NCBI GenBank assembly: GCA_947628235.1
Contig: CANQZC010000004.1
Location: forward strand, 12,314 to 76,313
DNA length: 64,000 bases
Origin: an uncultured Bacilli bacterium
GTDB lineage: Bacteria > Bacillota_I > Bacilli_A > RF39 > UBA660
Reading direction: 5' to 3'
Both the position numbers and the translations under genes were made by a program. Below are positions 1 to 17,387 of the stretch, piece by piece. A model generated the notes under the pieces. That model was not told where the DNA came from and did not search any database. It saw nothing but the letters and a program-made list of their open reading frames with translations. The number at the start of each line of letters is the position of its first letter. Position 1 is the first letter of the stretch.

Positions 1-521
1 AATTAACTTTAAACGAAGAGTATCCTTATATTTATCTTTATGTCGATGGAGAACCAATGATTGAAGGAAAAGAGATAGAAGACTATCTTTGGGTAGCTGA
101 TGATTTCGGTGTTATGGCTTCTAAAGTAGGAAAGATTTCCTTTTCCTTTGAAGAGGCTCCTCAAAGTTTTCAAGTCTATACGATCGATGTTTCTGCTATT
201 CAAGAATTTTGGGAAACAAGGGAGCAGTTTGTTCTTTCTAAAAATACAGGAAATCATATTTCTGGTACGATAACTGCTTCTCAAGATGGTTACTTATTCT
301 TTAGTATTCCTTATGAAGAAGGATGGGAAGCATCTTTAGATGGAAAGAAAGTTCCTTGTCAATCTCTTTTAGATACCTTTTTAGCAATTGAAGTAAAGCA
401 AGGGACGCACACTGTAGAATTAAATTATCATGTTCCGGGAATAAAGGCAGGAATCTTTCTTAGCCTAGGAAGTTTTCTTCTCCTTTTGGGATATGAGAGA
501 TACCGAAAAAGACACTGTTAA
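1..521 (+). CDS. C-terminal portion of a large membrane protein, YfhO-like; the reading frame is open back to the window edge (5-prime partial)
   Basis: The frame of the 57..521 ORF has no stop back to nt 3. The IPYEEGWEASLDGKKV motif and a C-terminal TM resemble the YfhO family C-terminus. The 9..284 minus ORF is antisense to it. Confidence 0.4.
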   Translation, partial: LTLNEEYPYIYLYVDGEPMIEGKEIEDYLWVADDFGVMASKVGKISFSFEEAPQSFQVYTIDVSAIQEFWETREQFVLSKNTGNHISGTITASQDGYLFFSIPYEEGWEASLDGKKVPCQSLLDTFLAIEVKQGTHTVELNYHVPGIKAGIFLSLGSFLLLLGYERYRKRHC

Positions 522-1078
522 TCAGTGTCTTTCTCTGTATATTTAGATTCAAATAAATTTTGTTCTTCGTTTTCTTCCTCTTTGATTTCAATTTTAGGGA
601 GTTCATCAATTCCTCCTAATCCGAAGTAATCTAAAAAGTCATTGGTCACTCCATATTGTTTTGGATGACCAGGAAGATTTGATCTTCCTACTTCTTGAAT
701 TAGATTTTTGATGAGTAATTTTCGAATGACATAACTACTATTTACGCCCCGAATTTCATCTACTTCAATTCTAGTAATTGGCTCATTATACGCGATAATC
801 GCTAGAGTCTCTAAAGCAGATTGCGTTAGATTGGAGTTTTCTTCTTCTAGCATAATTTTTTGGTAGTACTTTTTATGTTCTTGCTTGGTCGTTAATTTAA
901 AGTGTTCTCCTAGCAATTCTAATTGAATTCCTCGATTTTCATCTTGATAGTCTTGGTATAGTTCTTGAATTAGTTTTTTGACTTCTTCGGTAGGAATTTC
1001 TAAAATGGAACTGATTTCTGCTATCGTTAATCCATCAGCACCTTTTACAAAAAGTAATCCTTCGATGACTGCTTTCAT
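518..1078 (-). CDS. scpB: Segregation and condensation protein B
   Basis: The translation has the ScpB-like N-terminus IEGLLFVKGADGLTIAEI and an acidic C-terminus; it is 4 nt overlap-coupled to scpA. Confidence 0.8.
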   Translation of the reverse strand: MKAVIEGLLFVKGADGLTIAEISSILEIPTEEVKKLIQELYQDYQDENRGIQLELLGEHFKLTTKQEHKKYYQKIMLEEENSNLTQSALETLAIIAYNEPITRIEVDEIRGVNSSYVIRKLLIKNLIQEVGRSNLPGHPKQYGVTNDFLDYFGLGGIDELPKIEIKEEENEEQNLFESKYTEKDTD

Positions 1079-1797
1079 TTTTCTCCCCCCGTTTCCCGAA
1101 TAATAATATTATCAAAATTTTTCGTCTGTTCAATACTAATTTCTTGCTTTTTGGACATACTTAAGATAGCAAGGAAAGTAACTACTACATATTCTTTGGT
1201 TACAAAATCAAATAAATCTTCAAAAGAGACTTCCTTTTTCTTTCTTAAAATATCACGAATTTGAACACATCTTGTTCCTACCGAATATTCTTTCGAAGCG
1301 ATTTTCGTGTTTAATGGCTTTTGAAATTCTTTAGAATCTAAGAATTTTTGAAAAGCTGCTAGTAAATCTTCTAAAGAAATCCCATAGTCTATTTTCCCTT
1401 TTTCTTCTTGATATTCTAAAAGGTCGCTTGGTTCTTTTGTATAGACTTCTTTTCGATAGGATTCTAGTTCTTGGAAAGTTGCGGTTGCTTCTTTATAAGC
1501 TTGATACTCAAGGAGACGGTTAATCAACTCTTCTTTAGGATCTTCTTCCTCCTCGTCCTCTTTTTGAGGAAGCAATACTCGTGATTTCATTTCTACTAGT
1601 TCTGCTGCCATCACTAAGTATTCACTAGCGATATCTAGATTCATTTCTTCCATTTTTTCAATGTAATCTAGGTATTGCTTGGTTATTTCTTCAATGGAAA
1701 TGTCGCAAATATTGATATCTGACTGCTTAATTAAATGAAGAAGCAAGTCGAGTGGTCCATCAAAAGATGGTAGGGTAATTGTATATTCCATAAGCAT
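1075..1797 (-). CDS. scpA: Segregation and condensation protein A
   Basis: The LDLLLHLIKQ ... EITKQYLDY N-terminal motif is typical of ScpA. A true start at the third codon (MEYT) is possible. Confidence 0.8.
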   Translation of the reverse strand: MLMEYTITLPSFDGPLDLLLHLIKQSDINICDISIEEITKQYLDYIEKMEEMNLDIASEYLVMAAELVEMKSRVLLPQKEDEEEEDPKEELINRLLEYQAYKEATATFQELESYRKEVYTKEPSDLLEYQEEKGKIDYGISLEDLLAAFQKFLDSKEFQKPLNTKIASKEYSVGTRCVQIRDILRKKKEVSFEDLFDFVTKEYVVVTFLAILSMSKKQEISIEQTKNFDNIIIRETGGEK

Positions 1798-1938
1798 CCA
1801 ACTTTCTCATTCATTATAATATTTTTCAAAATAAAACTCAATACTTTCTATTTTTATACAAAGATTTTCAAAAAGAACTTTTTTTTTCCAAAAATTTAAG
1901 ATATACTATAGTTAGTAAAATAGTAAAGGGGAATAGAT

Positions 1939-3540
1939 ATGGTATTCAGAAAACCGTATGCATTTTTAATCAAACACTTTAAATTACTCCATATTTTGAT
2001 GACGATAGGAATGATTTTCTCTAGTTATCGTACGGAGTTAATGATTAGTTTTTTAAATGAATATATCGGTTCTAACATTTCTGTCATGGGAAAAGAAATC
2101 GTCTCATCCTTGTATAATGTATGGGTATTTCTAGTTCCTGTTTTAATCTTAATTATCTCTATTGTCCTATTAGTCACTATGACAATAAAGAAAAAACCTA
2201 GATTGTATTATATTTTAATGATTATTGTCCATGTTGCATTAATTGCTATCTATATTTATGGATTTGTAGTTTTTGGAAAGATGCAAGAGACTATTGTAGA
2301 GGTAAGAACGATTAAGGCTCTTCGTGATGTCCTCCTCTATGGTATCCTTTTCCAAGGAGCTTTCTCATTAGTTTCATTAATCCGTGGCGTTGGATTTGAT
2401 ATTAAGAAATTTGACTTCGGTCGAGATTTACAAGAATTAGATATCTCAGAATCAGATAGTGAAGAGTTTGAGGTTTCATTTAACTTTGATTTAAACGATA
2501 AGACTAGACAAGGAAAGAAATTCCTACGCCTTTTGAAATATCAATACTTAGAACATAAATTTGTTTTCCGAATCGCGGGAGGGATTGTTTTAGCAGCACT
2601 TCTTTTCTTCGCTTATTCTCATTATAATATCTATAATAAAACGAATCCAGAGGGAACTAGTTTCTATATGAATGGATTTACCTTGGGCGCAGAAAAAAGT
2701 TATTTAGTAAATCAAGACTTCCGGGGAAATATTATCGGTGATGGAAGTATTTACTTAGTTGTTGTAGATATCAATATTAAAAACAGTTCTCCAACTCCAT
2801 CTCCATTCGCAACAGGTGGAGTAGAACTAAATATTGCGGGAGATGTTTATCATCATACCGATAAGTACGATGCGGTTTTAGATGATTTAGGAGTTGTCTA
2901 TAAAGGACAAAATATTGCTCAAGAATTTACACACTACCTTTTTGTTTATGAAATTCCAGTAACGGCTACGAAGAGTAAGATGAAACTAGGCTTTAGTAAT
3001 GCTGATAATGGAAAGACGGCATATGTAAAATTAAAAGTAAATGATTTAACACCACAAGATAAGAAAGTCCAAGAGTATACTTTAGGCCAAGAAGCTAAAT
3101 TGAACGATAGTACTCTAGGAGATAGTACTTTAAAAATTGATAGTTATGAATTGAGAAATCGTTTTAGTTTAAACTATCGGTATTGTTCTACGAGAACTAA
3201 GAAATGTATTGATTCTGTAGAATATTTGATGCCAAACTTATATAACTCTAATTATAATAAGACACTTCTTAGAATTGATGGAACTTTTACTCTAGATGAG
3301 AATATGCATTCAGAGACTATTAAAGATTTTTATGGATTCTTCCAAGCATTTGGAAAGATTGAATATGAATTGAACGGGGAAACAAAGTATCAGAATGTTT
3401 ATTTAGGAGATGTAAGACCATCTAAAGTAAAATCGAATTCTTATTATATTGAAGTGATTCAGGAAATTAAGGCAGCAGACAAAATTGTCTTGATTTTCCA
3501 AGTAAGAAACAATGTTTATCGGTATTATTTAAAAAAATAA
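1939..3540 (+). CDS. Polytopic membrane protein (about 5 N-terminal TM helices) with a large extracytoplasmic domain; function unknown; first gene of the accessory block
   Basis: Long ORF with several hydrophobic N-terminal segments. Nothing identifiable as a prepilin-peptidase motif. Confidence 0.45.
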   Translation: MVFRKPYAFLIKHFKLLHILMTIGMIFSSYRTELMISFLNEYIGSNISVMGKEIVSSLYNVWVFLVPVLILIISIVLLVTMTIKKKPRLYYILMIIVHVALIAIYIYGFVVFGKMQETIVEVRTIKALRDVLLYGILFQGAFSLVSLIRGVGFDIKKFDFGRDLQELDISESDSEEFEVSFNFDLNDKTRQGKKFLRLLKYQYLEHKFVFRIAGGIVLAALLFFAYSHYNIYNKTNPEGTSFYMNGFTLGAEKSYLVNQDFRGNIIGDGSIYLVVVDINIKNSSPTPSPFATGGVELNIAGDVYHHTDKYDAVLDDLGVVYKGQNIAQEFTHYLFVYEIPVTATKSKMKLGFSNADNGKTAYVKLKVNDLTPQDKKVQEYTLGQEAKLNDSTLGDSTLKIDSYELRNRFSLNYRYCSTRTKKCIDSVEYLMPNLYNSNYNKTLLRIDGTFTLDENMHSETIKDFYGFFQAFGKIEYELNGETKYQNVYLGDVRPSKVKSNSYYIEVIQEIKAADKIVLIFQVRNNVYRYYLKK

Positions 3541-3633
3541 AAAGTCGCAGAAATTACGATTATTTTAAAATCGCGGATTTTGACTACCAAATTGAAGAAA
3601 AGTATGTTATAATTTAGAAAGGATAGAGTCGAC

Positions 3634-4326
3634 ATGAAAAGATATCTAATATATATGATACTACTGACAGGAATGCTTGTCATACCAAACCATGTATCTG
3701 CGATTCTCTGTGATTACCGAACAATCGCAGATTATCGGGACTTGGCAAGTAATATTCGAACCTATACCAATTATCAAATGGTAGATGGACAACCAGTTTT
3801 TACAATTACATTTACAAATATTTATGATGATATTTATATTGTTGATGAAACGAATCCAGATAAAACGAAGAAATATACAAGTAAAAACTTTGATGATGAA
3901 ACAACTCTTGTATTAAGTGGATATAAAGATAATCAGAGATTAACCTTTAAGATATACACTAGTACGGATGGATGCTACGGACAGATTTTAGGGACTAGAT
4001 ATGTTACATTACCTAATTATAATGAACTTTCAGTAGATCCTATTTGCGTCGGAGCAGAGGAGTACTCTTTATGTCAAAGATGGGGCGCTAATTCCATTAC
4101 TAACTATGACGACTTTGTAAGTAAGGTAAATAAATATAAAGAAGCAAGAAAACAAAAAATTACTTCTACAGCAGAGAAACAACCATTGACATGGAAAGAA
4201 AAAATTTTAAAGTTTATTGGTAATTATTATGTATATTTAGTTTCAGGAATTGTTATATTGATTTTAATATTAGCCGCATTAAAATCAATATCTGCAAAGA
4301 AACATGAATTCAATTTTAAAGTGTAG
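3634..4326 (+). CDS. Secreted protein with a signal peptide and a C-terminal TM anchor; unknown function
   Basis: The N-terminus MKRYLIYMILLTGMLVIPNHVSA is a signal peptide. A hydrophobic C-terminal helix is followed by basic residues. An RBS lies upstream, preceded by an extended -10 tgtTATAAT. Confidence 0.45.
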   Translation: MKRYLIYMILLTGMLVIPNHVSAILCDYRTIADYRDLASNIRTYTNYQMVDGQPVFTITFTNIYDDIYIVDETNPDKTKKYTSKNFDDETTLVLSGYKDNQRLTFKIYTSTDGCYGQILGTRYVTLPNYNELSVDPICVGAEEYSLCQRWGANSITNYDDFVSKVNKYKEARKQKITSTAEKQPLTWKEKILKFIGNYYVYLVSGIVILILILAALKSISAKKHEFNFKV

Positions 4327-4341
4327 GTGAATAAGAAAAAT

Positions 4342-7300
4342 ATGAAAAAGAAAAAAACAAGAGGGAAAACACTTTTACTATTGTGTTTAATTGCTTGCTT
4401 GATGATTTTTTCAGCAACCCCATTTGTAAGTGGGGAAGGAGAAACTCCTTCTGGTGGAGGAGTTTCTACAGGCGGTGACGATGGCGGAGAAGCAAGCGGT
4501 AAAGGTGAATCATGCAATTCTATGACAGGGAACAGTTATGTAAGATGGGGAATAAGAGTTTCTATTGTTGGAGATGATTCTAAGCCTATTGCAGGAACTC
4601 ATGCAATTAATGTAGTACCTAAAGTTTGGGAAAAAGGAGCTTATGTTGATTGGGCTAACGGAACCTTTTATTCTGTTAGCAATGGAACCAAAACGAAATA
4701 TGAATATTTAAGTTCTCTAAGTTCTGATGTCCTTAATGGAAAAGATGTAACTCCTGTTACGGAAACTACATGGAGTGGAATGGGATTCATTAGTGCAGAA
4801 GCTTTAATTAGTAAAGCGGCATTAGCTTTGAATATTCACAATAGTATTCCAAAGGACTACACCGGTAGTAAGGTTACATCTGATATCAAAGCACTATATA
4901 ACTATATAGCTACTGTAGATGCTTCTAATAATTATGCATGGACAGATGCATTATTCTCTTTACTTGGATGGAATAAAAAAGTTGCGGAATTAACTGAGGA
5001 AGAAATTTCTAGCACTTATGTTATGTTTGAACCAGTTATGGGATTAGAGGTAAAAACGGCTAGTACTGGTTGCGATAGTTATCATGGTGTCGTAGCGACG
5101 ATGACAGAGATGGCAACTATTTTATCTCCGGGAACTTCTACATGGTCTATGGGAAAAGACATGGTAGAAAAATTTGGAGCTCAGATATATGCTCCAGCAA
5201 ACTGTGGATATGATAAATGTGCTCCTAAAGATATTGAAAGTTATAATAATCTAGCAATATCAGCTGCTAAAGGAAGGGGAGCTTGGAGAAAATTAGTGGA
5301 TGCTACTACTACTCAAGCTGTTAGTTATATTTGGCTAGGTGCTGTTATTCAAAAAGAGGAATCTTGCCCTGAAGTTATCAAACAAATCAATGCTATGAAG
5401 ACAGGCGGAAAAATAGATCAGAGCAAATATGATGATTTAGTTGCAAAGGTAAAAAATGGACAGCTTACTCTTGAACTTGCTCAACAACTTAATTTACAAT
5501 CTGCTAGTGGAAAGTTCTTAGTTATGACACAACCACAAGATTATGATTATCTTGATAAAACTTACTATGGTGATACAACGATTAATCCAACAGGACTTGC
5601 AAAATGTGAAAACCACATTCCACAACCACCAACGGCTTGCGATCCTTCTTTAGCACATGCAGATGTTTATGTTGACCCTTGTACAAATGGACAAACATAC
5701 TTTAGAGATGATGGTAATGAAGATAACTGGTTAAAATGTGAAACAGCTTACTATTTTAACGGTACTGCTTATTCATCAGATAATACTGGACATGTTGCTA
5801 CAGATGTAGAAGCATGGCAAAGTGATGGAAGAATTCAAGTTAGTTCTAAGTTTCAAGCTGTTATGGGAAGCCATAGACAGGTTGGAAATAAAGAGTTTTG
5901 TGAAGTTTTCTGCCGAGAAGAATATGAAACATATTTTCCAACTTCGGTTACAGGCATAAGAGCTGGACGGACTTTTGTTTGGGGACAATCTGATGGCACT
6001 TATGGAACAGTAAGAATTATTAAACACTGTTCTAATCAAGATTATAATAAAGATGCTGGTGAAGGATATCGATTTAAAGAATGGGAAAGCAAGTATAAGG
6101 AAAATGAACGACAATTAGTTACAAATTGGCTTGACTATAACTTTAATAAATGGGCTGATGATAATATTAAAGTAACACACGCTTCTGATAGCACACTTCA
6201 TGCAAATGGAGGATGCTGCGCCGTTGAAAAAACTAATCCAATTACAGGTCGCGCATATTGCAAGACCCCTGGAACAAAATGGACAGCCAAAAAGGAACAC
6301 CCATTTACTAGCAAAGGTAATCCTGATAACAATGACTGGATGAAAGCTTATGGTAGCATAGATGCTAAATTTAATGATTATAGTTGTACTTCTGAAGACG
6401 ATGCAAAAAACAAGGTTAAAAGTCCAAATACGCAAACTTACTATAATAACTATACTATAAATGTTGCACAAGAACCTGAAATTATGGCAGAAATATTAGA
6501 GTGCGCACAAAATATAAAATATGTATATAATGCTGTTGTATATTTTGTATTCCAAGAACCTGTTAATGCTCAGTATGGACCAAACTCAAGACAATTCCAA
6601 TATGATGATGAGTTATTAATAGACCCATCTAAAGAGGATGGTTATAACAAAGACAATGTTGATACAAGCACTTGTGAACGTGCTAGAGTATATTCATATG
6701 AATGCTCAGGTTCTGATTTAGATGCTCATTGCGATGCTACTGAAGAGTGGGTACTTGATTGCTCTAAGACCCGTGTCACTTGGGATATTGAAGGAAATTG
6801 GACTTACAAATATAATGCAGAGGATTTCCAATGGTATTCTTTAAAAATTGATAGTACTTTAATCAATAAAAAGGAAAAGCCAAGCATTGATGATGCATAT
6901 TTCTATTTCCTTGGATTTGGATTACCAACAGCATTTAGTTTGACAGATGGTACCTATGATATGAAAGTCGTTGTTGGAACAATTGGAGATACTGGCGTTA
7001 CAGAAGGTGATCAACAATATAATGTTGATAACGGACATTTCTGGCCATTAACTGATTTTACAGATCATAACGTTTACGGCTTTGAATATCAATGTACATA
7101 TGAAGTAATAAACGAAATATTTGGTTATGATTGCCAATATGCGGCAGGTCAATTAACCGGGGTATCTCCAGAATATTGTGACCCAACAGATGACGGAGAT
7201 TCAAATGGATATTTGAAAGGTATTGATATTGTTTATAGATTGATTCAACTTTTAGACGATACGGATAGCATTGATAAAGCCTTCCCTGGTATCGATGGAA

Positions 7301-7719
7301 ATGGTAGAAATCAGGGAATGAACTGGAAATTACCAGAGAGTGACTTACATGACATTTTAAATTCGAATGTGATAAACAATAGCAATGCAATGTATGAATT
7401 AATGTTGGATGTAAATGCAATTCAGTACATTAGGGAAGATAATAAGAAATATTTTGATATGGGATTAGATCCTTATACTTCTTATGATTCAGAAAGCGGC
7501 GGATATAAAATTATTTGTGTCGGAGGTACTGACAAAAATAAATATTGTGCAAGTACGTTCTTGGATGATCTTCAAAATTTAAATGGTAATTTTTTAAATT
7601 ATCCACTTATGGGTACTTGTTTACCTAATGGTTTATCAGCGGAGCCAAGAGCTCGAGAAATATTAGCAAATGGTTGCGGATATTCATATGTATATCCACC
7701 ATTCACATGGACGAGGTGA
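4342..7719 (+). CDS. Very large (about 1125 aa) Cys-rich secreted protein, candidate surface or adhesin-like factor of the locus
   Basis: The ATG at 4342 is preferred over the GTG at 4327 because AGGTGA lies 11 nt upstream. A signal peptide is followed by a Gly-rich segment. There are dozens of Cys residues and no C-terminal anchor. Confidence 0.55.
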   Translation: MKKKKTRGKTLLLLCLIACLMIFSATPFVSGEGETPSGGGVSTGGDDGGEASGKGESCNSMTGNSYVRWGIRVSIVGDDSKPIAGTHAINVVPKVWEKGAYVDWANGTFYSVSNGTKTKYEYLSSLSSDVLNGKDVTPVTETTWSGMGFISAEALISKAALALNIHNSIPKDYTGSKVTSDIKALYNYIATVDASNNYAWTDALFSLLGWNKKVAELTEEEISSTYVMFEPVMGLEVKTASTGCDSYHGVVATMTEMATILSPGTSTWSMGKDMVEKFGAQIYAPANCGYDKCAPKDIESYNNLAISAAKGRGAWRKLVDATTTQAVSYIWLGAVIQKEESCPEVIKQINAMKTGGKIDQSKYDDLVAKVKNGQLTLELAQQLNLQSASGKFLVMTQPQDYDYLDKTYYGDTTINPTGLAKCENHIPQPPTACDPSLAHADVYVDPCTNGQTYFRDDGNEDNWLKCETAYYFNGTAYSSDNTGHVATDVEAWQSDGRIQVSSKFQAVMGSHRQVGNKEFCEVFCREEYETYFPTSVTGIRAGRTFVWGQSDGTYGTVRIIKHCSNQDYNKDAGEGYRFKEWESKYKENERQLVTNWLDYNFNKWADDNIKVTHASDSTLHANGGCCAVEKTNPITGRAYCKTPGTKWTAKKEHPFTSKGNPDNNDWMKAYGSIDAKFNDYSCTSEDDAKNKVKSPNTQTYYNNYTINVAQEPEIMAEILECAQNIKYVYNAVVYFVFQEPVNAQYGPNSRQFQYDDELLIDPSKEDGYNKDNVDTSTCERARVYSYECSGSDLDAHCDATEEWVLDCSKTRVTWDIEGNWTYKYNAEDFQWYSLKIDSTLINKKEKPSIDDAYFYFLGFGLPTAFSLTDGTYDMKVVVGTIGDTGVTEGDQQYNVDNGHFWPLTDFTDHNVYGFEYQCTYEVINEIFGYDCQYAAGQLTGVSPEYCDPTDDGDSNGYLKGIDIVYRLIQLLDDTDSIDKAFPGIDGNGRNQGMNWKLPESDLHDILNSNVINNSNAMYELMLDVNAIQYIREDNKKYFDMGLDPYTSYDSESGGYKIICVGGTDKNKYCASTFLDDLQNLNGNFLNYPLMGTCLPNGLSAEPRAREILANGCGYSYVYPPFTWTR

Positions 7720-7725
7720 TAGGTA

Positions 7726-8160
7726 ATGAGAGAGTCATTTTGGGGTGTTATGATTATAGGAATGGGAATAGTATCTATGTTTCTTGTATACTTTTTCCAA
7801 TCTATCACTAACACGGATGAGCATAATTATGAATTGTTAAAAGAAACAACGGAAGCAGCAATGTATGACGCGATTGATCTTGCTGCTTACCGTTATGATG
7901 AAACAGTTCGAATTGATAGAGAAATTTTTGTAGAAAGTTTCTTTAGAAGATTCGCACAGGATGCAACTTTACAACATCAATATCATGTTTGGATTTATGA
8001 TGTTCATGAGGAACCACCTAAAGTTAGTATTAGAGTAGAGACGATGGGATCTGAAATTTCTACGACGATGAGTGGTGGAGACAGCATTAATTTTAAATTA
8101 ACGGATACAATTAATGCCATTTTGGAAACAAAATGGGGTGTTAATGGATATGGAGGATAG
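7726..8160 (+). CDS. TadE-like pseudopilin/minor pilin candidate
   Basis: The MRESFWG N-terminus followed by a hydrophobic helix is shared with the ORFs at 12445 and 13000 (MRESIG, MREAVG). The small size fits a TadE/TadF-like protein. Confidence 0.35.
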   Translation: MRESFWGVMIIGMGIVSMFLVYFFQSITNTDEHNYELLKETTEAAMYDAIDLAAYRYDETVRIDREIFVESFFRRFAQDATLQHQYHVWIYDVHEEPPKVSIRVETMGSEISTTMSGGDSINFKLTDTINAILETKWGVNGYGG

Positions 8161-8165
8161 AAAAT

Positions 8166-9026
8166 ATGAATAATTTTATGATTTCTGCAAAAAGACTTAT
8201 CACAAACAAAAATACCGTTACCATCATAGGCGTTCTTATCGTTCTTGTTATTCTATACTGGGGATATAAGTCTACTATTGATAATGCGGTAAAACCAGTT
8301 AGTGTTCCATTTGCTAATAAGTTAATTGGACCACAAACTGAGATTACAGCTGATGATATCAGTTGGAAAAATGTTGCTAACGCAGCAAAAGATAATACAG
8401 TATTGATGAGAGAAAGCGACATTGTTGGAAAATACACTGCTGTAAATGCTACGATTCCAGAAGGAAGTATGTTTTATAGTGATGTATTAATCAATAAGGA
8501 AGATCTTCCTGGTTCTTGGTTAACAAGAATTAAAACAGATGTTAATGGAGTACCTGAAATTCCTTATTACATTTCTGTAAATATCGTTACTACATTTGGT
8601 AAATCTATTCAACCAGATGATTATATTGATATTTATATGAAAGCAAAAGATGAATCAGACTTGATTATGTTCGGTAAACTTATCGAAAATATTCAAGTAT
8701 TAGCAGTTAAAGATATGAGTGGTGAAGATGTTTTCAAAGATGTTGATAGCGATGCTACTCCAGCTTACTTATATTTCGGTGTATCTAGTGAGTTACATGA
8801 CTTATTAAGAAAAGCTTTATATTTAAGTAGTATTGGTGTTGAAATCATCGTTGTACCACATGGAGGTATTTCTCCAGTTACTGGAGATGTAGTTGTAAGT
8901 AGTGCTTATCTAAGAGACTATATCGATGCACACAGTGTTGTTATTCCAACAGATGAAGAATATGTTGAAAACTTAGATGGAAGCAATACAAATACAAACA
9001 CTGGAACAAATCCAGCAGGAAATTAA
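8166..9026 (+). CDS. CpaB/RcpC-like Flp pilus assembly protein
   Basis: An N-terminal TM is followed by a SAF-like segment (ITADDISW ... GKYTAVNATIPEGSMF). Placement just upstream of the CpaF ATPase supports the call. Confidence 0.45.
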   Translation: MNNFMISAKRLITNKNTVTIIGVLIVLVILYWGYKSTIDNAVKPVSVPFANKLIGPQTEITADDISWKNVANAAKDNTVLMRESDIVGKYTAVNATIPEGSMFYSDVLINKEDLPGSWLTRIKTDVNGVPEIPYYISVNIVTTFGKSIQPDDYIDIYMKAKDESDLIMFGKLIENIQVLAVKDMSGEDVFKDVDSDATPAYLYFGVSSELHDLLRKALYLSSIGVEIIVVPHGGISPVTGDVVVSSAYLRDYIDAHSVVIPTDEEYVENLDGSNTNTNTGTNPAGN

Positions 9027-9069
9027 TAAAAAGTAAAAAGAAGAATGAATAAAAAGGCTTGGTGAATAT

Positions 9070-10395
9070 ATGGATAATATATTTGATCAGATGGACTTCG
9101 GTTCATTACAACAATATCTTGACAATGACGATGTAACCGATATTTCCTACAGTAATGGAGGACAATTATGGTTAAAGACATTATCTCATGGTATATTTAG
9201 AGTAGAAAATCCTTTAATCGATAACAATTTCATGGAAAAGTTAGCATTCCAATGTTCCAATGTTGTTGGTCATAGTTTCAACGCAGCTCACCCTTTCCTA
9301 GATAGTGAAAGCGCTGAGTTGCGTATGAACTTTATCCATGATTCTATCGCTCGAAATGGGATTGCATGTGTTATTCGTAAAACACCAGCAAAGATTCGTT
9401 TGGAACATGATAAAATTATTGAAGAAAAATATATTACAGAAGATATTCATGATTTATTAATTCGTTGTGTTCACGGTCATTGTAATATGATTGTATCTGG
9501 AGAAACTGGTTCAGGTAAAACTGAGTTTGTAAAATACTTAGCTTCTCACACATACGAAAATGAAAAATTGATAACGATAGAGGATACCCTCGAACTTCAC
9601 TTGGATAGAATTTATCCACACAGAGACATCGTTGCTATGAAAACAAATAATGTTGCTAGTTATACCGATGTACTTGTTTCTTGTATGAGACAGAACCCTA
9701 AATGGATATTACTTTCCGAGGTTCGTAGTGCAGAGGCAGTACTTGCTGCCAGAAACTCTATTTCTTCTGGTCACTATATTCTTTCTACTATCCATGCCGA
9801 TAGGGCAACATCTATCCCTAACCGTATGTATAGTTTGCTAGAAACAAACCAAGAAATTGATCAATTCTTAAGATCTATCTATCGATATATTCAAATTGGT
9901 ATTTATATCCGTGGATATCAAGATAGAGTATCTAAAAGATTTGTTCGTGAGATTGCGGAAGTTTGTGAATTTTATGTTACGGAAGAAAATGAAGCAAAAT
10001 ATAATATTTTATTTCAAAAAACTCCAGCAGGAAAAATTACAAAGCATCCGCCAAGCAAATATTTAGTTGCTTATTTGGAGGCTCAAGGAGTTATCCTTCC
10101 AGAAGGTTTTATGGCAGGAGAAGCTACCGACAATGGAGTTTCTGCCTCTGAGACACTAGAAAAGGAAGATCCTTTCGCAGAACCTGCAAATAGCGAAGAA
10201 GGAGAAGGAGGACAAGAAGTACAACCTACTTCAACAGTTCCTACTGCCCCTGTAAGTCAACCAATGAATCCTATGGCAAGTCAACCTCAACCCACGATGA
10301 CTGTGCCACAACAAGTGAGTCCAATGACTCAACCACAAATGATGGCTCAAATGCCACCACAGGCAAGTCCAACGACTGCTTTTCCAACACAATAA
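9070..10395 (+). CDS. CpaF/TadA-family (VirB11-like) secretion ATPase with a C-terminal P/Q/T/M-rich tail
   Basis: Walker A GETGSGKTE, the ILLSEVRSAEA Asp-box region and the TIHA His-box are present. The last 90 or so aa are low complexity. Confidence 0.8.
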   Translation: MDNIFDQMDFGSLQQYLDNDDVTDISYSNGGQLWLKTLSHGIFRVENPLIDNNFMEKLAFQCSNVVGHSFNAAHPFLDSESAELRMNFIHDSIARNGIACVIRKTPAKIRLEHDKIIEEKYITEDIHDLLIRCVHGHCNMIVSGETGSGKTEFVKYLASHTYENEKLITIEDTLELHLDRIYPHRDIVAMKTNNVASYTDVLVSCMRQNPKWILLSEVRSAEAVLAARNSISSGHYILSTIHADRATSIPNRMYSLLETNQEIDQFLRSIYRYIQIGIYIRGYQDRVSKRFVREIAEVCEFYVTEENEAKYNILFQKTPAGKITKHPPSKYLVAYLEAQGVILPEGFMAGEATDNGVSASETLEKEDPFAEPANSEEGEGGQEVQPTSTVPTAPVSQPMNPMASQPQPTMTVPQQVSPMTQPQMMAQMPPQASPTTAFPTQ

Positions 10396-10413
10396 TAGAA
10401 AAGGAGGAAAAAT

Positions 10414-11319
10414 ATGAGTGTAACAGTAATCTTTTTTATCTGCTCTGTTATTGTTATCTTCATCTTAGTCTATAGAAGTGCGAATGGAGAAAATGTATAC
10501 AAATATGTAAGTGATAGAACAGCTTTTATCTATGATCGATTTGCACCTTATTCTTTTAAGACGATTCGTGACAAGGTAAAAGATTTAGGACAAGAATATA
10601 CGACGCACCAATACATTGTACAAGTTGTCAGTTTTGCTTTAGGTGCAGCAGTAATTTCTTACTTATATTTCTATAACTTAATTATTTCTGTCATTTATGC
10701 TATTATTGCTGTTTGCTTTATTCCTTATTTGACATATTTACGGTGTAAAAGAATTTACAGTGAATTTATTTTCGAGCAAATTCAAATTTACACAACTAAT
10801 ACAATTATGGAATTCGCAACAACACAATCTTTCGTTAAGGCACTAGAAGGTGTTTACGAATCTGGAGTACTTGAAGATCCTGTAAAGACAGATGTTAAAG
10901 TCATGATTGATATGTCTTATGAAAATGGTACAATTGATCAGTCTTTAAGTTTTATGAGTACTAAATATGACTTCTATATGGTAAAGAATATGCATCAATT
11001 GTTCTTACAAATTACGAATGAAGGTGCAAAGGATACTGCTGAGTCTCTAGAAAACATGTCACAGGATATCGATATGCTTGTTGAAAATGTATATCGAGAT
11101 AGACTAGACAGAGCTCAGTTTCATAAGAAGTTCTTACAATTTGGTATTATCTTATACTTTATGTGTATGTTACTTCAGTTCTTATTAGGATCTGAAACTT
11201 ATCTAGAAATGCTTGAGAGATGGTATGTACAATTGCTACTTCACGCGATTTTAATTGTTAATACTTTCTTCTTACTAAAAGGAGAAAAATACTATAATGA
11301 GAATGTAGGTGCGGAATAA
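10414..11319 (+). CDS. TadB-like (GspF-family) membrane protein
   Basis: Topology of an N-terminal TM, a cytoplasmic domain, then paired TMs. It sits directly after the CpaF-like ATPase and its stop overlaps the next start (TAATG). Confidence 0.45.
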   Translation: MSVTVIFFICSVIVIFILVYRSANGENVYKYVSDRTAFIYDRFAPYSFKTIRDKVKDLGQEYTTHQYIVQVVSFALGAAVISYLYFYNLIISVIYAIIAVCFIPYLTYLRCKRIYSEFIFEQIQIYTTNTIMEFATTQSFVKALEGVYESGVLEDPVKTDVKVMIDMSYENGTIDQSLSFMSTKYDFYMVKNMHQLFLQITNEGAKDTAESLENMSQDIDMLVENVYRDRLDRAQFHKKFLQFGIILYFMCMLLQFLLGSETYLEMLERWYVQLLLHAILIVNTFFLLKGEKYYNENVGAE

Positions 11320-12104
11320 TGGAATTTATAATTATTGCAGTTATTATTGTATTTATTTTGAACTATAACCGTGTAGTAGATACCAATCGGTTTGTTACCG
11401 ATACGGAACCATACTTTAGAGCATTGATGGAAGATGATTATGTTTTCTTACTTAATATTCGTTATCCAGGCCGTGATATTAATGTTAATGAATTATATGG
11501 AATTCGTGTAAGAAATGGTATTATTACGATTATTGCTTTAATCTTCTTATTCTTTAATCAATTATCTTTTATTTACATATTAATTGCTTTTATTGCTGGA
11601 TATCTAGTATTTAAAAGCCCATATAATTCTTTAAAATCTTATTACAAAGCAAATTTACACCATATTAACTTGATGCTTCCTTACTATTTAAAGAGTTTGG
11701 AAATCTTGGTACAACACTATACCGTACCAGTAGCATTAAGTAGAAGTATTGATACAGCTCCAGAAGTATTCAAGCCAGGACTACAAAGATTAGTAGCCAG
11801 AATTGATGCCGGAGATTCTAGTATTCAACCTTATATTGATTTTGCTAATGAATATCCAGTTCGTGATTCTATGCGTATGATGCGTTTGTTATATCGTTTA
11901 GGATTAGGATCTCAACAGGATAAGCACGAACAAGTTATGATGTTCTCTAGAACCGTTTCTGCTTTACAAAATAAGGCAAGAGAACAAAAATATAAGGAAC
12001 GCCTAGAAACCATGGAAAATCAAACCATGATTATGTTATTCTCTACTGGTGGTGGAGTTATGGGACTTATGTTACTATCTATGATGGTACTTATGACCTT
12101 TTAA
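11319..12104 (+). CDS. TadC-like (GspF-family) membrane protein
   Basis: Similar GspF-like topology; position in the gene order. Confidence 0.45.
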   Translation: MEFIIIAVIIVFILNYNRVVDTNRFVTDTEPYFRALMEDDYVFLLNIRYPGRDINVNELYGIRVRNGIITIIALIFLFFNQLSFIYILIAFIAGYLVFKSPYNSLKSYYKANLHHINLMLPYYLKSLEILVQHYTVPVALSRSIDTAPEVFKPGLQRLVARIDAGDSSIQPYIDFANEYPVRDSMRMMRLLYRLGLGSQQDKHEQVMMFSRTVSALQNKAREQKYKERLETMENQTMIMLFSTGGGVMGLMLLSMMVLMTF

Positions 12105-12114
12105 TCAAAATTTA

Positions 12115-12144
12115 TTGAAAAATAAAAAAGTAATGTGTTATAAT
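12115..12144 (+). promoter_or_regulatory. Sigma-A type promoter: TTGAAA, 18 nt spacer, TATAAT with an upstream TGT (extended -10)
   Basis: The hexamers can be read directly in the intergenic region upstream of the small pilin gene. Confidence 0.4.
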
Positions 12145-12171
12145 AATGTTAGAATGTAAGGTGGTGAGAGA

Positions 12172-12411
12172 ATGAAAGAAGCTGCAGGTGAAGCAAACTT
12201 AACTGTAGTTGCAATTATCTTAATTGCAGTAATCGTAGCAGTAGCTACCCCATTAATCAATAGTTTGATGAGAAGTTCAGCTAGAAGATCTTGCTGTACT
12301 GATGCCGGAGGTGTTTGGAAAAGCAACAACTGCATAGCAGCATCAAATGACAGAACTGGTCAATTCGACTCTGCTGGATATTCAAGCTGCGTATCAGAAG
12401 CTGGACAATAA
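12172..12411 (+). CDS. Small Flp/class-III-signal-peptide-like pilin candidate with a Cys-rich C-terminus
   Basis: A short charged leader MKEAAG is followed by a 25 aa hydrophobic helix. The protein is 79 aa and lies between TadC-like and TadE-like genes. It is noncanonical because the G/XXXXEY motif is absent. Confidence 0.4.
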   Translation: MKEAAGEANLTVVAIILIAVIVAVATPLINSLMRSSARRSCCTDAGGVWKSNNCIAASNDRTGQFDSAGYSSCVSEAGQ

Positions 12412-12444
12412 TCCGTTCATGTAAATTTATAGGAGGTAATAGCT

Positions 12445-12978
12445 ATGAGGGAAAGCATAGGGACTTCATTTATGTTAAATTTTATAGTTTTATTTATATT
12501 TTTAGTGTTTGCCTTCTTAGCTGGAACTTTTAGCTATTACAAGGCCTATAGAGTTAACAATTATATCGTTAACTCTCTTGAAATCTATGAAGGATATAAT
12601 GAATATTCAAAGGATCAAATGGATGTAGGACTAACTAGTATGGGATATGATATTACAACAAAGATAGATTGTCCAAGTACATGGGAAAACACGAGTCAAA
12701 GTTATTTGGCGCGTGAAAATGGAGAAATTGCTAAATTTAATGTAATAGGGCAAAGAGCTTTAGTGGATTTAAACCATCCAGACGAGGGATATTGCGTTTA
12801 TTTGTATTGGAATGATGATTCCACTCTTGCCGCAGACAATTCCTATGGATTGGAAACAACAGATGTTTACTATACTTATGGTGTCTTAACATACATGAAA
12901 TTTCGTTTTCCTGTCATTGAAAACATTTTGAGAATTCCTATATTTTCTAGAACCAATAGAATGTATTATTTTGGATAA
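12445..12978 (+). CDS. TadE/TadF-like pseudopilin candidate
   Basis: The MRESIG N-terminus plus a hydrophobic helix is paralogous to the ORFs at 7726 and 13000. Confidence 0.35.
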   Translation: MRESIGTSFMLNFIVLFIFLVFAFLAGTFSYYKAYRVNNYIVNSLEIYEGYNEYSKDQMDVGLTSMGYDITTKIDCPSTWENTSQSYLARENGEIAKFNVIGQRALVDLNHPDEGYCVYLYWNDDSTLAADNSYGLETTDVYYTYGVLTYMKFRFPVIENILRIPIFSRTNRMYYFG

Positions 12979-12999
12979 GTTAGAATGGGGTGAGCCTAG

Positions 13000-13473
13000 A
13001 TGCGTGAGGCAGTTGGAAATACTTTTATTGTAAATTTATTATTAGTCTTTTTAGGCGTTATGTCTGCTTTACTAATAGGATCTATTAGTTATTCTAAGGC
13101 GTTCAAAGTAAAAAATAGAATTATTTATATTATTGAAAAATATGGTGACTGGGATGTTACGGCAGGTGGAGAAAATTTGGTTCAAGCGGAAATAGAAGCT
13201 AACTTGAGAGATATTGGGTATCATTTAGCTTTAGCCAATAGAGAGTGTCCACCTAGAGACGGTGCTTTAACAAAATATGGTACCAATAGTACTACCACTA
13301 GTAGAACTACTTATCATTATTGCGTTTATGAGTATAACAATGAGAAAGGCCACTATTTTGGTGTGACATCATATATGCACTTTGATTTGCCTTTAATTGG
13401 AAATTATATTGAATTTCCTGTATATGGGGAGACTAAGTCATTGTATGATGTAGGTCAGCACTACAATAATTAA
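13000..13473 (+). CDS. TadE/TadF-like pseudopilin candidate
   Basis: The MREAVG N-terminus plus a hydrophobic helix. Confidence 0.35.
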   Translation: MREAVGNTFIVNLLLVFLGVMSALLIGSISYSKAFKVKNRIIYIIEKYGDWDVTAGGENLVQAEIEANLRDIGYHLALANRECPPRDGALTKYGTNSTTTSRTTYHYCVYEYNNEKGHYFGVTSYMHFDLPLIGNYIEFPVYGETKSLYDVGQHYNN

Positions 13474-13492
13474 CAAAGAAAGGTGATATTGC

Positions 13493-14467
13493 ATGAATGT
13501 TATCGTTTCTAATAAATATCAATTGATGCTAGAAAATCTAGGAATCGATGTTATTAAAAGTTTAAATGGGGAGTTTGAGGCTGATGAAATTATTAGCACT
13601 TTCCAAAACTTTTTTTATCAAAGAATGATTCTTGATATCACAGCGATTAAGGATTATAAGGATATTAGAAATCTTCAAAAATTATCTATAGCTTTACCTA
13701 TGGAAAAAGTAATTCTTTTACTAGATGATACAGAAGAAAGTACCTCTCCTGCTTATCTATCTAAGTTGATTTCTATGGGAATTTACAATTTTACAAGAAA
13801 TGTTGATGGAATTCAATATTTGTACAACCATCCAAATAGTTATCGTGATGTTGCACAATTCCATCAATTAGACGAAGTAGCTGTTGTTCCACAAATGCCA
13901 AATCAAGTTACACAAAATGTTGTTGTTCAAAATATTGGAACGGGTTATAGTGGAAGAATTATCGGTGTAAAAAATATTACCAAAAGTTCTGGCGCAACTA
14001 CATTAGTATATATGATGTATAATGAATTATCTAAGTACTATAATGTGGCAGCTATTGAAGTTGATAAAACCGATTTTACTTATTTAAAAACGCCAGGTCT
14101 TGTTTCTACTGTTAGTGGAAATGTAAATAGTGAAGTAGGTAAATATCGCGACTGTGATGCTATTATCATCGATGTCAATAACAGTGTTCAAGCAGAAGGA
14201 TTATGTAATGAAATCGTTTATTTGATTGAGCCTTCTGTTATCAAATTAAATCGTTTAACAATGGTAACTCCTCAAGTTTTACGAAATCTAAAGGATAAAA
14301 AGGTTGTATTAAATAAAAGTTTATTAAGTTCAAAAGATGTATTAGATTTTGAATATGAAGCAAGAATTAAAGTATTCTATAATCTTCCGCCTCTTGATGA
14401 ACGTGAAAAGAAAAATAAACCACTCGTTGAATTCTTAAATAAATTAGGTTTTGATCGAGTACAATAA
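13493..14467 (+). CDS. TadZ/CpaE-like protein with a receiver-like N-domain and a degenerate ParA/MinD P-loop
   Basis: The N-terminal 120 or so aa look receiver-like. The sequence GVKNITKSSGATTL occupies the place of the KGGVGKTT P-loop. The position matches that of tadZ. Confidence 0.35.
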   Translation: MNVIVSNKYQLMLENLGIDVIKSLNGEFEADEIISTFQNFFYQRMILDITAIKDYKDIRNLQKLSIALPMEKVILLLDDTEESTSPAYLSKLISMGIYNFTRNVDGIQYLYNHPNSYRDVAQFHQLDEVAVVPQMPNQVTQNVVVQNIGTGYSGRIIGVKNITKSSGATTLVYMMYNELSKYYNVAAIEVDKTDFTYLKTPGLVSTVSGNVNSEVGKYRDCDAIIIDVNNSVQAEGLCNEIVYLIEPSVIKLNRLTMVTPQVLRNLKDKKVVLNKSLLSSKDVLDFEYEARIKVFYNLPPLDEREKKNKPLVEFLNKLGFDRVQ

Positions 14468-14492
14468 CTTTAATATAATCAGAGGTGATATT

Positions 14493-15275
14493 ATGAGAAG
14501 TAAATTAACAAAAACTATTATTTTAATAGTTTTTGTCGTGTTTTTAGGGATAAAAAATGTAAGTGCTCTTACATGTACTTACTCAAGAAATGTTAGTGGT
14601 GAAGAACAAACATATACCATCAATTTAACTACTAAAGCGGTGACTTATACGTATTTTCGTATTCCTATGGCAGAACCTCAGACGACAAATAAGACGATGG
14701 TATTTTCTTTTACTACTTGTCCACCCTCTATTACTGTAACTGGAAACACCATTGCAGACGGCGGTAGTAGTGGAGATTATAAATTAAAAACTCCTACTTC
14801 GTCTTCCTCTTCCTCTTCAAATCTTGAGTATGGCGGAGGTGTTGGTCAGCTAACACACGAATCTAATGTAACTAATTGTGGAAGTATCACAGACATTCCA
14901 AGTGCTATTCCTAAAACAACAAAAATTATTTATATGTTTTTACAAGTTCTTATCCCTGTTATTTTAGTGATTATGGGAATGCTAGATTTAACAAAAGGTG
15001 TTATGTCTCAAAAAGAAGATGAGATAAAAAGAGGACAGCAAACTTTAGTAAAAAGATTGATTGCTGCGGCGATGGTCTTCTTTGTATTTGCACTTGTGAA
15101 AATGCTTGTTAGTTTTGTATCTGATGGTAATACTACTGTCACAGACTGCTTAAATTGCTTTATATCTGGCGAATGCGATGATACTGTTCCTCCTGTTGAA
15201 GGGGAAGAAAGTTCGTCTACTATGGTTCTTGAATGGAATGAAAGTTCAGATGCTCAGATTGCTATGGTAAGTTAG
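14493..15275 (+). CDS. Secreted hairpin-family protein P1 (VirB2/TrbC-like two-helix pilin-like domain) with a larger N-terminal region
   Basis: The ATG at 14493 follows a GAGGTGA RBS. It has a signal peptide and the conserved ...GMLDLTKGVMSQKEDEIKRGQQTLVKRLI... loop between two hydrophobic helices. A CG..I..IP motif and a C-terminal CLNCF complete the pattern. Confidence 0.6.
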   Translation: MRSKLTKTIILIVFVVFLGIKNVSALTCTYSRNVSGEEQTYTINLTTKAVTYTYFRIPMAEPQTTNKTMVFSFTTCPPSITVTGNTIADGGSSGDYKLKTPTSSSSSSSNLEYGGGVGQLTHESNVTNCGSITDIPSAIPKTTKIIYMFLQVLIPVILVIMGMLDLTKGVMSQKEDEIKRGQQTLVKRLIAAAMVFFVFALVKMLVSFVSDGNTTVTDCLNCFISGECDDTVPPVEGEESSSTMVLEWNESSDAQIAMVS

Positions 15276-15285
15276 GAGGACTAAT

Positions 15286-15813: not shown

Positions 15814-15867
15814 CTACTTTTCAATTGATAAAAAAAATAGTATAATGACTTTGAAGGAGTGTATGTT

Positions 15868-16266: not shown

Positions 16267-16283
16267 CTAGCAGGAGGTTACTA

Positions 16284-17381: not shown

Positions 17382-17387
17382 AGATTT

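Follow-up and report, generated by a model that had tools for sequence, protein, structure and literature searches.

Within the 64,000 nucleotides of DNA analysed here (the window), a gene for a very large exported protein, hereafter the giant protein, lies on the forward strand among genes of a pilus type:

1939–3540, + strand: 533-aa polytopic membrane protein with a large C-terminal domain outside the cell; co-conserved and fast-evolving (median 57% identity)
3634–4326, + strand: 230-aa exported protein with a C-terminal transmembrane anchor and 6 Cys (median 49% identity)
4342–7719, + strand: giant gene, encoding the 1125-aa exported Cys-rich protein; identified from its open reading frame and a family of about 107 representatives, with an alternative GTG start at 4327
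7726–8160, + strand: DUF5411 protein, pilin-like, with leader MRESFWG and a hydrophobic helix (Pfam E 5e-46), starting 6 nt past the giant stop codon
8166–9026, + strand: CpaB/RcpC-like protein, a weak match below curated cut-offs
9070–10395, + strand: secretion ATPase of the TadA/VirB11 (T2SSE) superfamily, by domain match
10414–12104, + strand: two membrane proteins of 301 and 261 aa, resembling TadB/TadC in size only
12115–12144, + strand: best sigma-70-like promoter match of the region, just 5' of the pilin gene
12172–12411, + strand: 79-aa pilin-like protein with leader MKEAAG, a hydrophobic helix and 4 Cys
12445–13473, + strand: two paralogous pilin-like proteins of 177 and 157 aa, with leaders MRESIG and MREAVG
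13493–14467, + strand: conserved 324-aa protein with no signal sequence and no family match; last gene of the pilus-type block

A sequence-only reading of this DNA had the giant gene heading a Tad-like module, with TadE-like and CpaB-like genes immediately behind it. The gene does not head the module, given that the genes at 1939–3540 and 3634–4326 precede it on the same strand and are co-conserved with it; one weak terminator-like site occurs in between, inside the first of them (2564–2582). The gene for the 230-aa protein always adjoins the giant gene or stands between it and the DUF5411 gene. As for the two following genes, the first encodes the DUF5411 protein, called pilin-like from its leader and hydrophobic helix, the predicted model being too uncertain for a firm fold call, and the CpaB/RcpC match of the second is weak (TIGR03177, E 3e-6, 27 bits against a cut-off of 71; RcpC, E 6e-4).

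The ATPase has a T2SSE domain (E 2e-26), and its NCBIfam scores for VirB11 (105 bits) and the TadA family (98 bits) are both far below cut-offs. A T2SSF domain was not matched in the 301- and 261-aa proteins at E values up to 10, nor did a PDB profile search give a match, and homology to TadB/TadC was not demonstrated: the fit is one of size and membrane character. Four small neighbours (the DUF5411, 79-, 177- and 157-aa proteins) have in common a leader of the form M[RK]E[SA]..G and, after it, a hydrophobic helix, unlike the giant protein, which has a Sec-type signal. Neither the Flp motif G/xxxxEY, a prepilin peptidase (peptidase A24) nor a relaxase was found in the window. Thus, the giant gene does sit with pilus-type genes as had been claimed, but sequence methods class the surrounding module as Tad only weakly.

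The linkage between the giant gene and the pilus genes was followed in 16 independent loci of relatives (19 places, three of which are the same or shared). In 11 of the 16, as in the window, the giant gene lies at most about 350 nt upstream of the DUF5411 gene, and in 3 more it is within 2.6 kb, so that 14 have it beside or near the DUF5411, CpaB-like and ATPase genes. One locus is without a giant gene. The number of copies per locus ranges from 0 to 2 and their position within the locus varies, always at the pilus end, by the DUF5411 gene. Even family members that are only about 25% identical (P0023, P0031, P0071 and P0103) keep the order giant, DUF5411, CpaB-like, ATPase, and the 6-nt gap between giant stop and DUF5411 start in the window has as its counterpart in locus L003 a 4-nt overlap of the two reading frames. 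In most loci the pilus block is directly followed by VirB2-like, VirB6-like, VirB4, wall hydrolase and VirD4 genes. Locus L011, with two giant copies and a pilus block, instead has housekeeping genes directly downstream and no type IV secretion system (T4SS) genes there; the giant gene is therefore linked to the pilus genes rather than to VirB4/VirD4. Overall, gene order supports the assignment of the giant gene to the pilus-type module.

The open reading frame runs on the forward strand from either GTG (4327) or ATG (4342) to 7719, and the length of 1125 aa given earlier holds when counted from the ATG; AGGTGA stands 11 nt before this codon. Five codons separate the two possible starts, and the choice between them is uncertain because the GTG directly abuts the stop of the upstream gene and gives an N-terminus (MNKKN...) resembling those of several orthologues. 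The protein can be divided as follows:

4342–4434, + strand: Sec-type signal peptide, aa 1–31 (KKKKTRGK, hydrophobic core, VSG/E), from the sequence pattern, orthologues and model
4435–4512, + strand: Gly/Ser-rich disordered linker, aa 32–57, from composition and pLDDT <50
4513–5541, + strand: hypervariable N-terminal region, aa 58–400, the proposed exposed head; 9–24% identity among full-length relatives, and model
5542–6141, + strand: conserved Cys-rich beta/alpha core, aa 401–600 (C422, C433, C447, C520, C524, C563), from alignment and model
6142–6441, + strand: variable insert between two long helices, aa 601–700, with CC625/626, from alignment and model
6442–7716, + strand: conserved C-terminal region, aa 701–1125, with beta-sandwich domains and the family signature AFPGxxGxGRxxGxNW, the proposed docking part, from alignment and model
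7678–7716, + strand: C-terminal tail Y-x-Y-P-x-[IF]-x-W-x-R, conserved in the close subfamily only

The single hydrophobic stretch of the protein (aa 5–33) has the n/h/c arrangement of a signal peptide and ends in VSG/E, the cleavage site being placed from the sequence pattern alone, without a dedicated predictor; orthologues have AxA-type sites. Neither a second transmembrane segment nor LPxTG was found in the sequence, and a C-terminal LPxTG sorting signal of the MSCRAMM or PrgB type is absent. The signal peptide, the Gly-rich linker (disordered in the predicted model) and the lack of an LPXTG motif or transmembrane anchor thus all agree with the earlier description. Signals of the family show no conserved Gly before the hydrophobic core, and a pilin-like class III segment of the TadG/CpaL type is absent. 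A lipobox-like LIAC at aa 16–19 fits the pattern, but a lipoprotein was rejected, given that C15 and C19 are conserved in 0% of close relatives and in 6–11% of a 76-sequence alignment.

The 30 Cys of the giant protein make up 2.67% of its residues, compared with 1.14% across the other 62 open reading frames of the window (binomial p 2.6e-5). "Very many" cysteines in paired motifs, as first described, is therefore somewhat generous, and the first CxxxC (aa 15/19) falls inside the signal peptide, but C520-x3-C524 and CC625/626 are genuine and conserved. Among 17 full-length relatives 17 Cys are invariant, and in the 76-sequence alignment about 20 reach a conservation of 80% or more. Positions kept across relatives in this way must be structural rather than due to chance. 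The giant protein is a genuine exported, disulfide-rich protein of 1125 residues; conserved extracellular disulfides are unusual in a gut anaerobe.

It belongs to an undescribed family of about 107 cluster representatives, recovered only by an exhaustive HMMER search; when 5.8 billion proteins were searched through a word index, a single-sequence query and a profile query alike returned the giant protein itself only. Full-length relatives are mostly 950–1300 aa long and have one layout (signal peptide, Gly-rich linker, 2–4% Cys), and nearly all those with a record title come from metagenome-assembled genomes (MAGs) of uncultured gut "Bacilli". A metagenome scan added one further locus. Four genomes carry extra copies: L004, L005, L011 and MAG CAXHRJ01, the last with a second copy. 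We reject an origin from phages or plasmids, as neither tblastn against collections of both nor a scan of viral contigs turned up relatives.

Searches of Pfam, NCBIfam and PHROGs with the whole protein, and of Pfam with five pieces (E up to 5) and with 42 diverse relatives, gave nothing usable, and PDB sequence searches with the single sequence and the 76-sequence profile gave nothing. The S-layer and wall-binding families to which the sequence-only reading had drawn attention were looked for by domain search, and no Pfam or NCBIfam match to SLH, CWB2, LysM, SH3, WxL, GW or choline-binding domains was found in the giant protein or the 42 relatives. Nor did an enzyme or toxin family match the protein or its relatives in these databases, in line with the earlier remark that nothing in it resembles an enzyme motif. 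There are no internal repeats in the protein and no paralogue elsewhere in the window; no ring-forming fold was detected. It gave no match to the vWA domain often carried by TadG-type proteins, and the C-terminal beta-propeller of PilY1/PilC is absent by sequence and fold comparison. A thioester-domain adhesin was also rejected: the TQAVSYIW found at aa 324 lacks both conservation and a partner Cys motif. The distant family member P0088 carries AFCLDPG...TQLAIW, and one of the 42 relatives has a TED match (E 0.0024).

The giant gene is the least conserved and fastest-evolving of the locus, with a median identity of 37% to seven orthologous loci compared with 61–91% for the assembly genes. Change is concentrated at one end: among full-length relatives the N-terminal 400 aa are 9–24% identical and the C-terminal 425 aa 40–56%. 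A variable N-terminus, a conserved C-terminus, extra copies and the highest rate of the locus fit the pattern expected of an exposed recognition protein.

From gene context, we suspect that the giant protein is a non-pilin, pilus-associated adhesin that works like PilY1, PilC and MshQ but is not homologous to them, a reading to which we give a probability of about 0.45. In this scenario, uncultured gut Bacilli would build a divergent Tad-like pilus, a type IV filament, with the giant protein as its large non-pilin partner. Sec would export the protein, its signal peptide would be cut off, and it would fold outside the cell into a multidomain body stabilized by disulfides. The conserved C-terminal 425 residues may dock on a conserved part of the pilus machine, most likely the pilin-like DUF5411 protein together with the other pilin-like proteins, and the hypervariable N-terminal 400 residues could form a target-recognizing surface displayed on the pilus, probably at the tip. 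The target may be a host surface or another bacterium, and recognizing it may be of use to the type IV secretion genes alongside. The earlier proposal of a pilus adhesin or tip protein thus gains from the linkage in 14 of 16 loci and from the evolutionary pattern, although the predicted fold matches no known tip adhesin.

The other role proposed earlier, that of a secreted substrate, is kept as a weaker rival. Here the giant protein would be exported by Sec, folded oxidatively and pushed through the wall by the Tad-like pseudopilus in the manner of a type II secretion system (T2SS). It would then act away from the cell as a toxin, an enzyme or a binding factor. Its Sec signal, the lack of an anchor of known kind, conserved disulfides typical of released proteins, fast evolution and tight linkage to a module with a T2SSE-type ATPase are consistent with this. 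However, in a cell with one membrane there is no outer membrane to be crossed, and we know of no T2SS-like route of wall passage in Firmicutes. Moreover, a C-terminal third conserved across the family, combined with a variable N-terminus, is more like a docking module than a free effector, and is the opposite of polymorphic toxins, in which the C-terminus is the variable part. With no enzyme or toxin family matched, we consider release as cargo improbable. Similarly doubtful is a structural part of the machine, such as a wall-spanning collar, conduit or cap passed by the pilus or the type IV secretion channel. In single-membrane bacteria without a secretin such a wall-level component is conceivable, and the size, multidomain build, conserved C-terminal region and conserved linkage to assembly genes would suit it. 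Core machine parts are usually conserved and single-copy, whereas the giant gene is the least conserved of its locus, varies in copy number and place, and encodes a protein in which neither repeats nor a ring-forming fold were detected.

The T4SS genes that directly follow the pilus block in most loci raise another alternative: a free-standing aggregation adhesin of this conjugation-like system, independent of the pilus and functionally analogous to enterococcal PrgB. Large surface adhesins are common in Gram-positive T4SSs. Yet L011 retains two giant genes and the pilus block with no T4SS genes directly downstream, the giant gene is always at the pilus end, and its product has neither LPxTG nor another anchor, and we regard this explanation as very improbable.

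If the giant protein is indeed a pilus-associated adhesin, its family would, as the exposed part, determine the specificity of a pilus system that is core to a group of uncultured gut Bacilli, and would be the first place to seek their attachment target, whether host mucosa or partner bacteria. The widespread DUF5411 family would gain a function as the pilin-like docking partner of an adhesin. A more speculative extension, which we think unlikely, is a hybrid apparatus fixed in the chromosome, made of a divergent Tad-like pilus and a T4SS of the mycoplasma-ICE type with no relaxase nearby, in which the giant protein would be the target-recognition module and which would serve contact-dependent exchange with, or exploitation of, other cells by gut Bacilli of reduced genome. 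The protein would then represent a new class of disulfide-rich adhesin fold, with a hypervariable head that sets partner specificity.

Among known systems, a DUF5411-containing, CpaF/PilC-like operon was predicted by Miller et al. (2022) in Roseburia, Ruminococcus and Eubacterium as an uncharacterized secretion or pilus-related system (PMC9523054). Like the window it has a DUF5411 protein, together with a CpaF-type ATPase to which the ATPase here may correspond (PMC9523054), but an internalin-like protein was reported there rather than a member of the giant family, whose relatives are nearly all from MAGs of uncultured Bacilli. Variable adhesins beside secretion systems also have precedents. 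PilV of the IncI thin pilus is plasmid-borne in enterobacteria and diversified by a shufflon. In R64/TP114, this type IV pilus stands beside a conjugative T4SS, and PilV, a minor pilin, sets recipient specificity in the gut (PMC9045228). Here, in contrast, the variable protein is not a pilin, and the locus is chromosomal, syntenic across species and without a relaxase in the window. The Kil Tad pilus of Myxococcus recognizes different target cells through interchangeable variable tips and works with a second secretion apparatus (PMC12075869). By analogy, the pilus block here adjoins a T4SS and the variable part may be the giant protein, although Kil tips are minor-pilin complexes and the Kil pilus, in a Gram-negative predator, is partnered by a T3SS-like basal body. 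In Tad pili, the large accessory protein TadG/CpaL displays a big tip-exposed domain (PMC13533445, PMC11870444), as the giant protein may do, and carries its own N-terminal pilin-like segment (PMC13533445); the giant protein differs in its Sec-type signal, the absence of a pilin leader and the lack of a vWA match.

A close parallel is with PilY1, PilC and MshQ, the large tip adhesins, themselves not pilins, of type IVa and MSHA pili. These dock on a minor pilin, their last ~10 residues adding a beta-strand to one of the PilK type (PMC13533445). The giant protein has no sequence or fold similarity to them and neither beta-propeller nor vWA; its gene lies before, not after, the pilin-like gene, its host has a single membrane, and its conserved C-terminal tail is confined to the close subfamily. 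Nevertheless, all are proteins of about 1000–1200 aa with a Sec signal instead of a pilin leader, no membrane or wall anchor, a variable N-terminal and a conserved C-terminal part, and a gene beside those of minor pilins or pilin-like proteins. The combination that marks PilY1/PilC, a Sec-exported non-pilin encoded beside pilin-like genes, is thus found in the giant protein as well, which would add a non-homologous solution to the design of a large adhesin on a type IV filament.

The giant Cys-rich exported protein is encoded on the + strand from 4327 (GTG) or 4342 (ATG) to 7719. The GTG follows the stop codon of the preceding gene without a gap and would give a product beginning MNKKN..., similar to the N-termini of several orthologues, so the start is uncertain by five codons; the other results are unaffected. 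Counted from the ATG, which has AGGTGA 11 nt to its 5' side, the protein is 1125 aa long. Its sole hydrophobic stretch (aa 5-33) lies between KKKKTRGK and VSG|E; at the latter position relatives have AxA-type sites, and a Gly-rich segment (aa 32-57) is disordered in the structure model. Neither an LPxTG motif nor a second transmembrane segment was found in the whole protein. The 30 Cys (2.67% versus 1.14% in the window's other ORFs; p 2.6e-5) include two inside the signal peptide, a CxxxC at 520/524 and a CC at 625/626. The sequence-only reading had described this length, signal peptide, Gly-rich linker, abundance of Cys with paired motifs and lack of an anchor, all of which are borne out; it had also placed the gene at the head of a Tad-like module, and here it erred, given that the gene is the third of a co-directional string. 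A lipobox-like LIAC (aa 16-19) is present but not conserved, and we rejected the possibility of a lipoprotein.

The window is chromosomal, with ~33% GC and nearly all genes on the + strand. Its main regions are:

518-1797, minus strand, scpB/scpA, housekeeping genes beside the pilus-type block
1939-14467, pilus-type block
14451-29783, type IV secretion (T4SS) genes of the Gram-positive type, directly after the pilus-type block
further downstream, the housekeeping genes rnr, smpB, gap, a Clp/Hsp100-type AAA+ ATPase gene, clpP, infC, rplT, ruvAB and queA

The pilus-type block starts with genes for a 533-aa membrane protein, a 230-aa exported anchored protein, the giant protein and DUF5411 (Pfam E 5e-46). 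These are followed by a CpaB/RcpC-like gene (a weak match), a T2SSE-superfamily ATPase with about equal scores as VirB11 and TadA, and two membrane proteins of TadB/TadC size (301 and 261 aa), and the block ends with a 79-aa pilin-like protein, a pair of pilin-like paralogues (177 and 157 aa) and a 324-aa protein. Given that no T2SSF signal was found in the 301- and 261-aa proteins, 'Tad-like' is a reasonable label rather than demonstrated membership. A short leader, M[RK]E[SA]..G, followed by a hydrophobic helix is shared by DUF5411, the 79-aa pilin and both paralogues, as a common prepilin peptidase would require. No prepilin peptidase, relaxase or integrase was found within the 64-kb window. 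Within 1700-14600, the best sigma-70-like promoter match (12115-12144; 11/12 with extended TG) lies just 5' of the 79-aa pilin gene, which suggests that this gene is driven by a strong promoter of its own within the operon.

The whole locus is kept in synteny beside scpAB in ten loci from species-representative genomes. All but one are titled 'uncultured Bacilli bacterium', and the loci come from gut MAGs whose isolate names suggest rabbit and mouse; the remaining one carries the title Muribaculaceae and is a contig of 2.4 kb that may be mis-binned. Together with loci fetched via distant family members, DUF5411 and a metagenome scan, 19 places reduce to 16 independent loci (L015 matches L014, L007 and L010 belong to a single MAG, and L009 is a fragment of a contig). 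The giant C-terminus ends at most ~350 nt from the DUF5411 start in the window and 11 independent loci; the window has a gap of 6 nt, and L003 an overlap of 4 nt between the ORFs. In L002, L005 and L020 the two genes are up to 2.6 kb apart, with nothing but the 533/230-aa or 230-aa genes in between, and L019 has a pilus/T4SS locus with no giant copy within 10 kb. Four distant family members (P0023, P0031, P0071 and P0103; ~25% identity overall) retain the order giant, DUF5411, ~285-aa protein, ATPase, 301, 261 and small pilin. In L011, the pilus block is directly followed by dus, an aminoacyl-tRNA synthetase gene and ackA, without T4SS genes, and thus the genomic link of the giant gene is to the pilus block. 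Relatives were absent from the phage, plasmid and viral-contig collections searched.

Pfam, NCBIfam and PHROGs gave no match for the giant protein, five pieces of it or 42 relatives, and PDB sequences gave none by single sequence or profile. Among 5.8 billion proteins, a word-indexed search recovered nothing but the query; when 1.84 billion representatives were searched exhaustively with HMMER, 107 matched at E < 1e-3 (35 at E < 1e-30). The family is real and undescribed. Seemingly full-length members are mostly 950-1300 aa with 2-4% Cys, and begin with a signal peptide and then a Gly/Ser-rich stretch. Sixteen full-length relatives share 32-39% identity with the giant protein, and most others match aa ~810-1115 only. 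Seventeen Cys are invariant in a 17-sequence alignment and ~20 are at least 80% conserved across 76 sequences, which argues that the cysteines are structural, most simply as disulfides. Residues that are near-invariant (76-105 sequences) are confined to aa 882-1077: G882, C918, N924, D962, R966, F981, P982, R989, G992, N994, W995, Y1018, L1022, I1027, I1030, R1031, Y1045, S1071 and L1077. The tail Y-x-Y-P-x-[IF]-x-W-x-R is conserved in the close subfamily, and more distant members terminate straight after the last conserved Cys.

Compared with seven orthologous loci, the giant gene has a median identity of 37%, followed by the 230-aa (49%), 533-aa (57%), 177-aa (61%), CpaB-like (68%) and 157-aa (69%) proteins, DUF5411 (77%), the 79-aa pilin (81%), the ATPase (84%), the 324-aa protein (85%) and the 301- and 261-aa proteins (91% each); ScpB and ScpA have 76% and 78%. 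Among full-length relatives, identity is 9-24% at aa 1-400, 31-45% at aa 401-600, 15-17% at aa 601-700 and 40-56% at aa 701-1125. Tandem duplicates occur in L004, L005 (6724-13441) and L011 (1-5873), the MAG represented by L007 and L010 has a second copy on the other side of scpAB, and the position within the locus varies between relatives. Overall, the head changes fast, the tail is conserved and the number of copies varies.

An AF2 model built on the 76-sequence alignment (mean pLDDT 79, pTM 0.56; aa 340-960 mostly >85) predicts an alpha/beta N-terminal region (aa 60-335; modelled with less certainty), then a helical segment (aa 340-420), a Cys-rich beta region (aa 425-575), two long helices (aa 578-607 and 697-722) around a variable insert, beta-sandwich domains (aa 725-925) and an irregular C-terminal part with disulfides. 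In the distant member P0088, the N-terminal head (aa 109-160) has AFCLDPG...TQLAIW, reminiscent of the Cys and Gln motifs of thioester adhesins, and one of 42 family members has a Pfam TED match (E 0.0024). The motifs seen in P0088 are missing from the giant protein, which was rejected as a thioester adhesin.

The T4SS genes encode four VirB2-like paralogues, VirB6-like, VirB4, CHAP and SpoIID/C39 wall hydrolases, and VirD4, and such genes are directly behind the pilus block in L001, L003, L008, L010 and L014 as well. The locus is chromosomal and syntenic beside scpAB in several species; its best family matches are mycoplasma ICE proteins, and VirB4 is closest to the mycoplasma-ICE family. The VirB4-like ATPase (20335-22718) occupies two ORFs with a 4-nt overlap, which match the mycoplasma-ICE VirB4 model (Mbov_0397 family) at positions 101-276 and 296-893; the explanation is a split gene or else a frameshift. 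The T4SS locus may be a domesticated conjugation-like system. A VirB2-like T4SS_pilin membrane domain is found in at least seven window paralogues (14451-17831, 33528-36189 and 43728-44174), including two ~435-aa Cys-rich proteins and one copy far outside the cluster. Exported proteins of the locus are generally Cys-rich (5.1% in the pilin at 12172-12411, 3.1-3.6% in others at 17442-17831 and 33528-36189; window mean 1.14%), which points to disulfides being formed outside the cell in a gut anaerobe; the window showed no thiol-disulfide oxidoreductase. A 379-aa protein after VirD4 (29868-31007) weakly matches phage tape-measure families only (E 6e-6), probably through coiled-coil or repeat resemblance.

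Elsewhere in the window, rplT (ribosomal protein L20; 52183-52707) has an extra C-terminal Rho_N-like domain (E 5.6e-10), and three consecutive genes encode Tim44-like domain proteins (54985-57211). Small ORFs at 41384-42735, before divIC, by eye resemble spoVG, yabP and yabQ, a sporulation-type neighbourhood in a probably reduced-genome Bacilli lineage. ARAGORN found no tRNA or tmRNA genes in the 64-kb window, despite the presence of smpB (40857-41300), and Rfam gave no match there at gathering thresholds.

From the gene context we suspect, with a probability of about 0.45 for the mechanism as a whole, that the protein is a large non-pilin pilus adhesin. In this scenario, Sec export and signal-peptide cleavage would release the anchorless protein, which would fold outside the cell with many disulfides. 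Its conserved C-terminal region would then dock on a conserved partner, for which the pilin-like DUF5411 protein (adjacent, tightly spaced, 77% conserved) is the obvious candidate, and the variable head would be carried on the filament, probably at the tip. If strand addition by the tail is used, it would not be universal in the family, since the conserved tail is limited to the close subfamily. The neighbouring T4SS genes raise the possibility that the target is another cell and not the host.

A secreted cargo expelled by a pseudopilus would likewise be expected to lack an anchor, yet we consider this reading unlikely: neither a single-membrane envelope nor the pattern of conserved tail and variable head agrees well with it. 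No more probable is a structural component at the level of the wall, which would be consistent with the linkage, but the gene is the least conserved of the locus and its copy number varies. Less probable still is an aggregation adhesin that serves the T4SS independently of the pilus: the adjoining genes are those of a T4SS, but L011 has the pilus block without them, and the giant gene is constantly at the pilus end of the locus.

Operons of the DUF5411 type have been noted once before, in Clostridia, as a secretion-related but uncharacterised system (PMC9523054), and the family studied here is not described in that paper. Membership tests failed for TadG/CpaL, LPxTG adhesins and S-layer or wall-binding proteins, as did the defining domain test for the PilY1/PilC family. 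By function, the closest known kind for our candidate pilus adhesin is nonetheless the large non-pilin adhesins PilY1, PilC and the ~1200-aa MshQ, which work in the proposed way in type IVa and MSHA pili and whose final ~10 residues supply a PilK-type minor pilin with an extra beta-strand; in Tad pili the same problem is solved in cis by TadG/CpaL (PMC13533445). Cooperation between a further secretion machine and pili whose recognition parts vary is known from the Myxococcus Kil system (PMC12075869) and from the IncI thin pilus with PilV (PMC9045228).
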